This document shows positions 34,891 through 40,921 of a stretch of DNA of 64,000 nucleotides, one piece after another (the stretch's first letter is position 1; each line of letters begins with the position of its first letter). A program made the translations under genes and the position numbers. Origin of the DNA: Solirubrobacterales bacterium (GTDB lineage Bacteria; Actinomycetota; Thermoleophilia; Solirubrobacterales; JACPNS01); the NCBI GenBank assembly GCA_049276635.1, contig JBASWU010000101.1:6414-70413 (forward strand), read 5' to 3'. Under the pieces are notes generated by a model. The model saw nothing but the letters and a program-made list of their open reading frames with translations, ran no database searches and had not been told where the DNA came from.

Positions 34891-36435
<1,545 letters not shown>

Positions 36436-38740
36436 GGGAGACCCTCGGTCCATTCGGACCATAACTACGAGGGCATGGCCAGGCCGACCACTCGTCGCCC
36501 TGGCTTCCTGAATGTCGACTGAATCTGTTCGCGTTGCCAGGCCTTCGGGCCGGAGCACGCATCACGCTGTTGAGTTTTGAGGGACCACTCGACGGTGGCT
36601 TCTCAGCTGCCGGCGAGCGCGTCGCTTGCGGACCTTGAAAACTGCACAGGCCAAGCAATTTATAACGAAAGCGGAAAATTGAACCGAGCAACATCGGTCC
36701 TCGGACCAGTGTTGTTCAGTGTTTTGATCACCGTCAAGATATGAAGGGCATACGGTGGATGCCTTGGCATCTGAAGCCGATGAAGGACGTGGACGGCTGC
36801 GATAAGCCGCGACGAGGCGCTGAACAGCCTTTGACTCGCGGATCTCCGAATGGGTAAACCCAACACCTTTAATCGGGTGTTTGCGTGCACTGAATACATA
36901 GGTGTCACGTAGGTAAGCGAGGGAACTGACACATCTCAGTACCTCGAGGAAAGTAAATCAACCGAGACTCCCTTAGTAGCGGCGAGCGAAAAGGGACCAG
37001 CCTAAACCCGTTGCGTGCAAGCAATCACGCGTTGCGCAGCGGGGGTCGTAGGACACTCATCCCGGTAGTGATTTGCCGGGCGTAAGTTACAAAGCTGCAG
37101 TTAGTGGAAGCTGTTGGAATCCAGCGCCATAGCGGGTGATAGCCCTGTACGCGAAAACTGGCAGCCTTACGCGAGTTGTTCCTGAGTAGGACCGTACACG
37201 TGAAATGCGGTCTGAACCTGGGGGGACCACCCTCCAAGGCTAAGTACTTCCAGATGACCGATAGCGGACTAGTACCGTGAGGGAAAGGTGAAAAGTCCCC
37301 CAGACGGGGAGTGAAATAGTACCTGAAACCGTGTGCCTACAAGCGGTCGGAGCCCCACAGGGGGTGACGGCGTGCTTTTTGCATAACGAGCCGGCGAGTT
37401 ACTCGTCATTGGCAAGGTTAAGTGATGAACGGAGCCGCAGCGAAAGCGAGTCCGAATAGGGCGACTTAGTCAATGGCGGTAGACCCGAAACCGGGCGAGC
37501 TACCCATGGCCAGGCTGAAGCGAGGGTAAGACCTCGTGGAGGGCCGAACCCACCTAGGTTGAAAACTGGGGGGATGAGCTGTGGGTTGGAGTGAAAGGCT
37601 AAACAAGCCCGGAGATATCTGGTTCTCTCCGAAATATATTTAGGTATAGCCTCGGAAAATTGCGTGATGGCCGTAGAGCACTGTTTGGACTAGGGGTCTT
37701 ACCGGATTACCGACTTCAGGCAAACTCCGAAGACCATCACGTTTATTCCGGGAGTCAGTTGCTGGGGGATAAACTTCAGCGTCGAAAGGGAAACAGCCCA
37801 GACCGCCGTCTAAGGTCCCTAAATCATGGTTAAGTGGAAAACGATGTCTGAGTGCACAGACAGCCAGGAGGTTGGCTTAGAGGCAGCCACCCTTTAAAGA
37901 GTGCGTAACAGCTCACTGGTCAAGTGTTCAGGCGCGGATAATTCAACGGGGCTAAAACCATGTACCGAAGACGCGGGTGTGATTGATTTCGATCATTCAC
38001 GCGGTAGGAGAGCGTTCTCAAGCCTTTGAAGCGGCAGGGAAACCTAGTCGTGGAGGCTTGTGAAGTGAGAATGCCGGCATAAGTAACGAAAGGAGGGTGA
38101 GAATCCCTCCCACCGATTGTCCAAGGGTTCCTGAGTAAAGCTCGTCTTCTCAGGGTTAGTCTGGACCTAAGGCGAGGCCGAAAGGCGTAGTCGATGGATA
38201 ACAGGTTGATATTCCTGTACCGCGTCGCAACCGTTTGACCGACGGGGGGACGAGGAAGGCTAGGAGATCCCAGGCGATGGTTGTCCTGGGGTAAGCATGT
38301 AGGGGCGGCACCAGGGAAATCCGGCGCCGCTTAACCCGAGGTGCGATGCCAGCTGGCTCTATAGCCGGCGAGTCTCTGACGCCATGCCTCCAAGAAAATC
38401 CTCTAGGGAGGTCGCACGCGCCAGTACCAAAACCGACACAGGTGGACAAGTAGAAAATACTAAGGTGATCGAGATAACCATCGTTAAGGAACTCGGCAAA
38501 ATCGTCCCGTAACTTCGGGAGAAGGGACGCCCTATTAAGGTGAAACCGTTTACCGGTGGAGCCCGAGGGGGCCGCAGTGAATTGGCCCAACCGACTGTTT
38601 ACCAAAAACACAGCTCTCTGCTAAGCCGCAAGGCGACGTATAGGGGGTGACTCCTGCCCGGTGCTGGAAGGTTACGAGGAGGTGTTAGCGCTTGCGCGAA
38701 GCACTGAATCTAAGCCCCAGTAAACGGCGGCCGTAACTAT

Positions 38741-39283
38741 TGACCACGGTAGTTATAAAACCTGGCTATATGCTGGAACGCCTGTCCTTCAAAAGGTGCT
38801 CCGAGGGTTCGAACGCGAACTCGACGAGGTAAAGGATCTCGCACTACTCGTACGGTCGGTCGAACATCTGTTCGTCCGAAGACAACCGTAAAGTGACAAC
38901 GTGCCGAGTGCAGAAAATCAGCAGGAAAGGCTCTTCATCCGATCGGCAGTCCCGATCGCACGGGGGTACTTTCTGTCAGGTTTCGCGATGAGAGAAGCCG
39001 GCTTCATGACCGTGTGTCGTCCTCGAGGCGATTACGGCGGAAGGTGGAAGCTCTCAGCGAAACCGACTTTGTCACGGTTGTTGACCTTCGCGAGAAGATG
39101 AACAACGGCGACAAGCGAAAGTGCTCTCGGGAGAGAATCCTCAGAGACTATACGCCAGGCTCCGCGGCGCGAAACGCGCCGACGCGAGATGAGATAGTCC
39201 GGTCTCATGGGCGACCATGAGAGTCGAACAGAAATGATTCGACCGCCTGATTCGCATCCGCGCGTCAGGCAGTAACAACAACG
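38741..39283 (+). mobile_element. Group I intron 1 (543 nt, no ORF) after E. coli 23S position U1917 (helix 69 loop)
   Basis: 5' exon ends ...GGCCGUAACUAU and the intron ends ...AACAACG, followed by AACGGUCC. P1: exon UAACUAU pairs with intron GUAGUUA (38749-38755) with a U.G wobble at the splice site. P3 CUGGC (38762) pairs with GCCAG (39154). P element UAUAUGCUGGAA (38767), Q AAUCAGCAGG (38916), R UCAGAGACUAUACGCCAG (39141), S GAGAUAGUCC (39191). Confidence 0.8.
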
Positions 39284-39297
39284 AACGGTCCTAAGGT
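39284..39297 (+). other. 14-nt 23S rRNA micro-exon (E. coli A1918-U1931: AACGGUCCUAAGGU)
   Basis: This is the only copy of this universally conserved H69/H71 segment in the gene. It sits between the two intron-like insertions. Confidence 0.8.
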
Positions 39298-39671
39298 AAT
39301 CAACACGGTTGCCCCTCATCCTGGTGACAGGATGAGTGGAGCTGGCTATATGCTGGAAACTCTGAGTATCCCGCGGTACTCGTTCGCTAGACCTCGGTCC
39401 GGCGAGCAGTGAAAATCCGACGGGTGCAGACAATCAGCAGGAAAGGCTTCAGGCAAGGTATTTGGCGCCTGAAGAATCCTCAGAGACTGTACGCCAGCCA
39501 CCTTTGCGCGCACCGATGGTGCGGGCGGAAGGCGAAGATACAGTCCGTTCTGCGCGGCGACGCGTAGAGGTCGACAGAGATGATCGGCCCGCCTGGATGC
39601 TGGATGAATTGATCCGGCGACCAGGTCCAAACCGCAGGCAGTTCAAAGGAACTGCGGTTAGTAACAGCTAG
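39298..39671 (+). mobile_element. Group I intron 2 (374 nt, no ORF) after E. coli 23S position U1931
   Basis: 5' exon ends ...CCUAAGGU and the intron ends ...CAGCUAG, followed by AGCGAAAUUCC. P2-like hairpin CUCAUCCUG-GUGA-CAGGAUGAG (39315-39336, GNRA loop). P3 CUGGC (39342) pairs with GCCAG (39493). P UAUAUGCUGGAA, Q AAUCAGCAGG (39432), R UCAGAGACUGUACGCCAG (39480), S GAAGAUACAGUCC (39534). I could not draw a convincing P1/IGS by eye. Confidence 0.75.
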
Positions 39672-39713
<42 letters not shown>

Positions 39714-39971
39714 AGTAACGAGTTGGGCGCTGTCTCAACGATGGGCTCGGTGAAATTGCAGTCTCGGTGAAGATGCCGAGTACCCGCGGTAAGACGGAAA
39801 GACCCCGTGAACCTTTACTACACCCTGATATTGGAATATGGAGCATTTTGCTCAGGATAGGTGGGAGTCTTTGAAGCGCCGGCTTTGGCTGGCGTGGAGA
39901 CAACCTTGAGATACCACCCTGAATGTTTTGTGTTTCTAACGGCCGGCCGTGAATCCGGCGGCCGAACAGTG

Positions 39972-40005
<34 letters not shown>

Positions 40006-40160
40006 CAAAATGTAACGGAGGCGCACAAAGGTTCCCTCAGCACGGTCGGAAATCGTGCATAGAGTGCAAACGCATTAAGGGAGCTTGACTGTGAGACTGA
40101 CAAGTCGAGCAGGTACGAAAGTAGGTGTTAGTGATCCGGCGGTAGCAAGTGGAAGCGCCG

Positions 40161-40203
<43 letters not shown>

Positions 40204-40235
40204 GAGCCCAAGAGTTCACATCGACGGCTCGGTTT

Positions 40236-40274
<39 letters not shown>

Positions 40275-40275
40275 T

Positions 40276-40309
<34 letters not shown>

Positions 40310-40310
40310 T

Positions 40311-40358
<48 letters not shown>

Positions 40359-40387
40359 TACCGTGGGCGTTGGAGAATTGAGTGGAG

Positions 40388-40418
<31 letters not shown>

Positions 40419-40477
40419 AGACCTCTGGTGTAGCAGTTGTTCTGCCAAGAGCATCGCTGCTTAGCTACGTCTGGACT

Positions 40478-40510
<33 letters not shown>

Positions 40511-40801
40511 AACCACGAGATGAGTTCTCCCACTCCTTTAAGGAGGTAAGAGTCCTGGCAGACCACCAGGTTGATAGGCCGGGTGTGGAAGTGCGGTAAC
40601 GCATGCAGCACACCGGTACTAATCGCTCGAGGGCTTGACGGATATTTTTCATCCTTCGGGATGATCGATGACCATGATCAAACCCAATTTGACGCCACCT
40701 CGTTCTTGCTTGCGTTCTGTGCAGTTTTGAAGGCCCGCGACGGCGGGTCGTTCGGCACCCAACCCGGCCGAGTGACTCGTGTTCGACGTGTACCCTCACC
40801 A

Positions 40802-40921
40802 GTTTCCGGTGGTTATAGCGTTGGGGAAACACCTCTTCCCATTCCGAACAGAGCAGTTAAGCCCAACAGCGCCGATGGTACTTGTCTCGCAAGGGACCGG
40901 GAGAGTAGGACGCCGCCGGTT
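40802..40921 (+). rRNA. rrf: 5S ribosomal RNA
   Basis: gtttccggtggttatagcg...ccgaac...gcgccgatggtact...gggagagtaggacgccgccgg has the typical high-GC Gram-positive 5S sequence. Helix I closes CCGGUGG/CCGCCGG. Confidence 0.9.

Follow-up and report, generated by a model that had tools for sequence, protein, structure and literature searches.

A group I intron with a decayed homing-endonuclease gene, probably self-excising, after U1917 of the 23S rRNA gene in a Thermoleophilia-related actinobacterium

Group I introns inserted at position 1917 of the 23S rRNA gene (L1917) are already known from Synechococcus sp. C9, Thermotoga, CPR bacteria, organelles and Coxiella (PMC1995217, PMC11270868, PMC10136302), and the position is a published homing site (PMC1995217, PMC11270868). 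The introns of Synechococcus sp. C9 (743 nt) and Thermotoga subterranea (774 nt), with relatives in green-algal organelles, carry a single-motif LAGLIDADG gene in P6; the reading frame extends into P7, P3 and P8, P2 is missing, P5 is complex and the introns are IC1-like (PMC1995217). Synechococcus sp. C9 bears a pair of introns, at L1917 and L1931 (PMC1995217), and the same two positions are hot spots for LAGLIDADG_1 group I introns in CPR bacteria, rRNA insertions being much rarer in the non-CPR genomes of the same survey (PMC11270868). The intron Cbu.L1917 of Coxiella burnetii is reported to belong to subgroup IB2 and to be paired with Cbu.L1951 around a 34-nt exon, an arrangement in which exon skipping has been observed (as cited in PMC10136302). 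In our text searches of the literature, no publication came up that describes group I introns in the rRNA of Actinobacteria or Thermoleophilia.

Here we analyse a 64,000-nt stretch of DNA (the window, meaning throughout the whole of that stretch) and conclude that its positions 38741-39283 constitute a group I intron inserted after U1917, with a standard architecture, a decayed endonuclease gene and, probably, the capacity to excise itself. We put the probability of this reading at roughly 90%. What is new is the addition of a Thermoleophilia-related actinobacterium to the host range of L1917 introns, the intron type itself being known.

The rRNA operon and its two insertions

The window contains a single rRNA operon on the + strand (16S 34892-36432, 23S 36732-40642, 5S 40805-40921), all three genes of which are full-length and high-scoring; a tRNA scan of the window found none. 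The 16S rRNA sequence is 90-91% identical to those of Solirubrobacterales/Thermoleophilia assemblies and the genome has a G+C content of ~65%; the host, a Thermoleophilia-related actinobacterium, is represented by a metagenome-assembled genome. The 23S gene, at 3911 nt, is ~1 kb longer than the model and is interrupted twice, by what we call intron 1 and intron 2. The 5' exon ends at 38740 (...GGCCGUAACUAU) with intron 1 directly after it, G39283 at the other end of intron 1 is followed by AACGGUCC, and intron 2 is followed by AGCGAAAUUCC. Once both insertions are removed, the gene aligns with E. coli 23S rRNA collinearly and in a single piece, the junctions falling at 1916 and 1930 of the 2903-nt E. 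coli copy, which are the conventional positions 1917 and 1931 of the 2904-nt reference. The first insertion lies exactly after U1917, that is, at L1917, and its boundaries are unique, since a shift by one base in either direction breaks the universally conserved CUAU followed by AACGG. This insertion point is in the loop of helix 69, so intron 1 presumably has to be removed.

The source seems to be metagenomic (a protein of the window also occurs in GCA_049651765.1 and two Logan assemblies), and an assembly artefact or chimera might be suspected. However, both junctions are base-exact, the architecture recurs in at least 23 independent assemblies, long-read chromosomes included, and the G+C content is 55% in intron 1 and 55% in the rRNA exons, all of which makes an artefact very improbable. 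The elements of intron 1 and its neighbours are as follows.

38734-38740, + strand: 5' exon strand of P1, UAACUAU, equal to 23S 1911-1917, with U38740 as the splice-site U of the U.G pair (read from the sequence)
38741-39283, + strand: intron 1, an L1917 group I intron of 543 nt without P2 (23S interruption, RF00028, homologues, covariation)
38742-38745, + strand: GACC in the P1 loop, the guide half of P10, pairing with GGUC 39287-39290
38749-38755, + strand: intron strand of P1, GUAGUUA (sequence, family alignment)
38761-38766, + strand: 5' strand of P3, CCUGGC, pairing with GCCAGG 39154-39159; 3 of 6 pairs covary (C-G, U-A, G-C)
38772-38776, + strand: 5' strand of P4, GCUGG, pairing with UCAGC 38918-38922; invariant in 23/23 and in agreement with the Rfam alignment
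38782-38913, + strand: P5 domain, with P5 formed by CUG 38782-38784 and CAG 38911-38913 (3 covarying pairs), plus a distal hairpin
~38785-38837, + strand: extra, lineage-specific P5 insert of two small hairpins, ~50 nt
38838-38844 with 38901-38908, + strand: P5a, 6 covarying pairs
38901-39157, + strand: decayed single-motif LAGLIDADG homing-endonuclease gene (tblastn with relatives' ORFs)
38923-39141, + strand: P6, AGGA 38923-38926 with UCCU 39138-39141, invariant
38931-38936 with 39130-39135, + strand: P6a, enclosing a ~190-nt insert; 5 of 6 pairs covary
39146-39151, + strand: 5' strand of P7, GACUAU, pairing with AUAGUC 39194-39199 (pseudoknot with P3); 96% of cells paired
39160-39188, + strand: P8 hairpin, with GGCGCG-AAA-CGCGCC at 39166-39180; RNAfold -19.2 kcal/mol
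39204-39221, + strand: P9, CUCAUGG/CCAUGAG with the GNRA loop GCGA; 100% paired, 4 covarying pairs
39223-39228 with 39238-39243, + strand: P9.1, loop CAGAAAUGA; 6 of 6 pairs covary
39245-39250 with 39265-39270, + strand: P9.2 (predicted fold only)
39271-39283, + strand: 3' tail AGUAACAACAACG with the terminal G39283; G ends 24/24 members and a (G/A)(U/C)AACA motif is conserved
39284-39297, + strand: 14-nt micro-exon AACGGUCCUAAGGU, equal to 23S 1918-1931 (sequence, E. coli alignment)
39298-39671, + strand: intron 2, an L1931 group I intron of 374 nt (RF00028, 62.9 bits; core related to intron 1)

Group I structure and predicted splicing

At the Rfam gathering threshold only intron 2 is detected. 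A permissive RF00028 search of the 1 kb at 38700-39700 aligns the full model with 38731-39221 at 21.1 bits (E=0.0074; cutoff 50), with P2 skipped and very large inserts placed in P5 and P6. This sub-threshold match is, taken alone, weak evidence; the shortfall of the window copy coincides with, and is probably attributable to, its ~50-nt P5 and ~190-nt P6 inserts, and compact L1917 homologues do score above the cutoff (66 bits in L068 and 60.2 bits in L077). We regard the comparative evidence as decisive for group I identity. Covariation was assessed in 23 sequences (intron 1 and 22 relatives, with long P6 inserts cut to 14-nt ends), in which pairs were counted for a specified structure, the P7 pseudoknot and P10 included. 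Standard pairs fill 96.4% of the cells, as against 31-39% after displacement of the 3' partners by 1-3 columns, and compensatory change is seen in 34 of the 67 pairs; none of 500 shuffles reached the observed values. To the covarying pairs of P3, P5, P5a, P6a, P9 and P9.1 listed above are added two in P7 (U-A to C-G, A-U to G-C) and five of the six pairs of proximal P8, a helix for which the window copy adopts a shifted register with bulges. P1 (its U.G included), P4 and P6 are invariant, so that for these helices the test is neutral, neither supporting nor contradicting them.

The resulting architecture has a U.G pair in P1, lacks P2, runs from P3 to P9.2 with P3 and P7 forming a pseudoknot, and shows a GNRA loop on P9 and a G as the last base. 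The spacer from P1 to P3 is just UAAAA (38756-38760), so that intron 1, lacking P2 and having an elaborate P5, shows both features of the published L1917 lineage. Across the family, the U.G pair of P1 is present in all 23 aligned members, GACC or ACC is kept in 17-21 of the 23 otherwise variable P1 loops, and L9 is always a GNRA tetraloop (GCGA in 22, GUAA in 1).

The pairings that the earlier note had picked out by eye reappear in this model: the 7-bp P1 (UAACUAU/GUAGUUA, U38740 opposite G38749), P10 between GACC in the 8-nt P1 loop and GGUC of the micro-exon, P3 as CUGGC/GCCAG within the six-pair helix C-CUGGC/GCCAG-G, P7 as GACUAU/AUAGUC, and the GGCGCG-AAA-CGCGCC hairpin, which turns out to be part of a longer P8; the terminal G at 39283 stands likewise. 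Its identification of a group I intron at L1917 is borne out by the exact interruption of the 23S gene, covariation and at least 23 homologues. The comparative modelling that it had suggested accommodates P3 to P9.1 with the P3/P7 pseudoknot and backs them by covariation, and the closest homologues are indeed homologous L1917 insertions, two of them above the RF00028 cutoff. That note did not mention the remains of an endonuclease gene in P6, the additional P5 insert or the core common to introns 1 and 2.

Bacterial 23S genes commonly contain intervening sequences of another kind, cut out by an RNase III-type activity without ligation so that the 23S rRNA is left fragmented (PMC11270868, PMC4990558). 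The known cases, however, lie in helices 25 and 45, not in helix 69, and their simple long-hairpin form is absent here, where the insert instead combines a complete group I core, backed by covariation, with a U.G pair at the 5' splice site and a G as its last base. The covariation result effectively refutes such an origin, to which we give next to no credence.

A different matter is whether intron 1 still splices. It might be a dead relic, descended from a group I intron and either kept in the mature 23S rRNA, for which the Simkania L1931 intron offers a precedent, or stranded in a non-functional operon; the decay of the endonuclease gene, the sub-threshold Rfam score and the irregular P8 register would all suit such a relic, and a second, intron-free rRNA operon, if present, could relax selection on splicing. 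Yet the core agrees with the family consensus at 132 of the 134 columns conserved at >=87%, the two deviations being a compensated P9.1 pair and a C-to-A change beside P5/P4 (alignment column 200), a match that equals or beats that of members with intact endonuclease genes. Every helix is still paired when the fold is mapped onto the window copy, and the 16S, 23S and 5S genes of the operon are full-length and score highly. The loop of helix 69, moreover, forms the intersubunit bridge B2a and is unlikely to tolerate 543 additional nucleotides. We thus consider a dead relic unlikely, and guanosine-dependent self-splicing of intron 1 probable. Excision from the precursor rRNA would proceed by two guanosine-dependent transesterifications, with P10 aligning the 14-nt micro-exon for ligation.

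Two segments of the micro-exon are put to use: GGUC (39287-39290) in P10 of intron 1, and GGU (39295-39297), which supplies the exon side of intron 2's P1. Being separate, the segments would allow both pairings to coexist. P1 of intron 2 contains just three exon bases (GGU/GCC), supplemented by intron bases (AAU/GUU), and intron 2 has a P2-like hairpin (CUCAUCCUG-GUGA-CAGGAUGAG) and no endonuclease remnant. Local blastn between the two introns (global MAFFT misaligns the 5' half) yields three collinear core blocks, with 100% identity over 17 nt, 83% over 41 nt and 69% over 124 nt, in which P3-P4, P5a'-P4'-P6 and P6'-P7-P3'-P8-P7'-P9-P9.1 are shared. Intron 2 differs from intron 1 in its insertion site and its guide sequence. 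The idea that it is a local duplicate of intron 1 was considered and rejected, the best matches of each being same-site introns elsewhere.

Several introns at the L1931 site of other loci seem to have A rather than G as their last base before AGCGAA. L023 (...GAGUCA before AGCG) and L080 (...AACAGUA before AGCG) leave no doubt about this, whereas L001, L013, L050 and L089, in which the intron starts with AG, are ambiguous. Such introns may have a non-canonical terminal base. One Coxiella intron reportedly does not end in the canonical G.

The endonuclease gene in P6

Family members of ~700-825 nt have an open frame of ~160 codons in P6, and many L1917 relatives carry a LAGLIDADG homing-endonuclease gene, intact in L004, L006, L023, L024, L037, L058 and L080. 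The P6 ORFs of relatives match the Pfam family LAGLIDADG_1 (PF00961) with E=1e-14 to 1e-20 and solved LAGLIDADG endonucleases (I-SmaMI, I-OnuI, I-MsoI) with E-values down to 5e-31; their C-terminus, ...ERILRDYTP, is encoded by P6', J6/7, P7 and P3'. When these ORFs are searched against the window by tblastn (E=4e-16 to 4e-11), two fragments of the gene emerge, an N-terminal one (~aa 4-47) at 38946-39077, in the frame of a 66-codon ORF at 38901-39101, and a C-terminal one (~aa 119-153), whose frame differs, at 39053-39157. A Pfam search of both ORF fragments from the window gave no match. Some 75 internal codons have been deleted and a frameshift has occurred in addition, and the LAGLIDADG motif, FLSGFALGEGSF in relatives, is degenerate in the window (FLSGFAMREAGF). 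With its two fragments in different frames, the endonuclease gene of the window is a pseudogene within a conserved ribozyme. The gene in the 501-nt intron of L094 has suffered an independent internal deletion, and in both this intron and that of the window N- and C-terminal pieces of the gene are kept.

The endonuclease frame of the actinobacterial members stays open all the way from a GUG or AUG within the 3' strand of P5a (GUG 38901 in the window) through P5', P4' and P6 (...NQQER...). The ORF may therefore share sequence with the ribozyme core at both of its ends, 5' as well as 3'.

The P6 insert of the window (38927-39137) folds far better than its dinucleotide shuffles (z -6.1), and so do the inserts of relatives (L004, L006, L023, L024, L037, L052, L058, L075, L080 and L094; z -3.4 to -9.0), intact ORFs included; for the ~450-nt gene, z lies at -5 to -9 in 10 members out of 10. 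As a control, eight coding segments of 211 nt, taken from genes in the window, averaged z -0.57. According to the predicted folds, the ends of the insert pair together and the codons of the LAGLIDADG motif pair with the 'KLSA' codons. We add a tentative pair of linked suggestions, which we hold to be possible but rather doubtful: the endonuclease gene in P6 may also be under selection for RNA structure, and the splicing of introns 1 and 2 may be ordered, or the two introns mutually insulated. Were the former true, the gene would decay through apical deletions that leave the P6 extension folded; as to the latter, skipping of the 14-nt exon would remove part of helices 69-70.

The extra P5 insert of the window is found in none of the 22 aligned relatives, and its first hairpin alone (CCUGUCCUgagAAAGG) occurs in L003, L006 and L077. 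The fold of the P5 region is not statistically unusual when compared with shuffles (z -1.5), so we make no claim for the insert beyond its presence.

Distribution, mobility and comparison with known systems

We scanned genomes, one for each species, for the 5' exon with a base other than A directly after it (pattern ACGGCGGCCGTAACTATB), and at least 120 loci were returned. About 85 of the 120 listed (~3/4) are A1918G variants (e.g. L007-L012, L019, L028, L066); G at 23S position 1918 occurs in many Planctomycetota, Spirochaetota (Leptospira, Brachyspira) and Rickettsiales, and swamped the pattern scan. Two dozen of the loci listed have insertions that start with ...GACCGAGGUAGUUGUAAAACUCGGCUAUAUGCUGGA and are clearly homologous to intron 1. 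The window's own genome is not among the matches listed, which leaves the tally of L1917 introns incomplete and makes these counts lower bounds. Complete homologous insertions number at least 23; they measure 252-825 nt, share the same P1 and all end in ...AACAnnnnG before AACGGUCC, and in blastn searches intron 1 matches L1917 relatives with E-values down to 1e-26. The assemblies in which the relatives occur are from soil and freshwater and represent at least eight bacterial phyla, among them Actinomycetota, Dormibacterota, TM6, Planctomycetota, Nitrospirota, Acidobacteriota and Gemmatimonadota; Solirubrobacterales/Thermoleophilia, other Actinomycetes, Dormibacteraeota, Nitrospira and Acidiferrales figure among the host annotations of the relatives (at least 23). 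The 14-nt micro-exon between two insertions is found in 10 of 23 relatives. Two loci, L003 and L077, combine an L1917 intron with an insertion of 714 nt or 689 nt after U1951, leaving a 34-nt exon.

A scan of metagenomes with the 45-nt 5' exon yielded the two contigs with the closest 23S sequences seen. They are L124, 93.3% identical to the 23S gene of the window and devoid of both introns, and L127, 92.9% identical and devoid of the L1917 intron, with an L1931 intron 85% identical to intron 2. Intron presence is thus polymorphic among near relatives, and this, together with the multi-phylum spread and the endonuclease gene, fits a mobile element. The earlier note had proposed that L1917 is a recurrent homing target or that its introns spread horizontally, and the same observations (the range of phyla, the LAGLIDADG genes and the intron-less near relatives), along with the published homing site, support that proposal.

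In the explanation that we favour, the lineage of L1917 rDNA introns would spread by endonuclease-mediated homing, and intron 1 would have arrived in this way and later lost its mobility. With its endonuclease gene decayed, the window copy is presumably no longer self-mobilising, and it would persist since a working ribosome still depends on splicing by the ribozyme. It would then stand at that stage of the homing cycle in which the endonuclease degenerates and the intron is retained, a textbook intermediate with a conserved ribozyme and a half-deleted endonuclease gene, for which intact and ORF-less relatives are at hand for comparison. In practical terms, such introns add ~1 kb to 23S genes and may disrupt the annotation of rRNA, primer sites and the analysis of long-read amplicons.

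As regards the systems introduced at the outset, intron 1 resembles the introns of CPR bacteria in insertion site and endonuclease family, and both groups have ORF-containing as well as ORF-less forms; the host of the window, however, is not a member of the CPR (PMC11270868). With Coxiella Cbu.L1917 it shares, to judge from site and description, the same 23S position, the lack of an intact ORF and a very short exon between two introns, and the Coxiella-type L1917+L1951 pair with a 34-nt exon also exists in the window's relatives L003 and L077. The Coxiella intron, though, is reported to be of subgroup IB2 (as cited in PMC10136302), whereas the published L1917/L1931 relatives are IC1-like, and the partner of intron 1 is an L1931 intron across a 14-nt exon, intron 1 itself ending in G. 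The introns of Synechococcus sp. C9 and Thermotoga are similar, by description (DQ421380, AJ556793), in their site, the absence of P2 and the complex P5; in Synechococcus sp. C9 the ORF lies in P6 and passes through P6', P7 and P3' as it does in the window's relatives, and a tandem L1931 intron follows 14 nt downstream, as in the window. Intron 1 differs from these two in that its endonuclease gene is a pseudogene, in its length (543 nt as against ~700-825 nt for ORF-bearing members), in its extra P5 insert and in its Thermoleophilia-related actinobacterial host.
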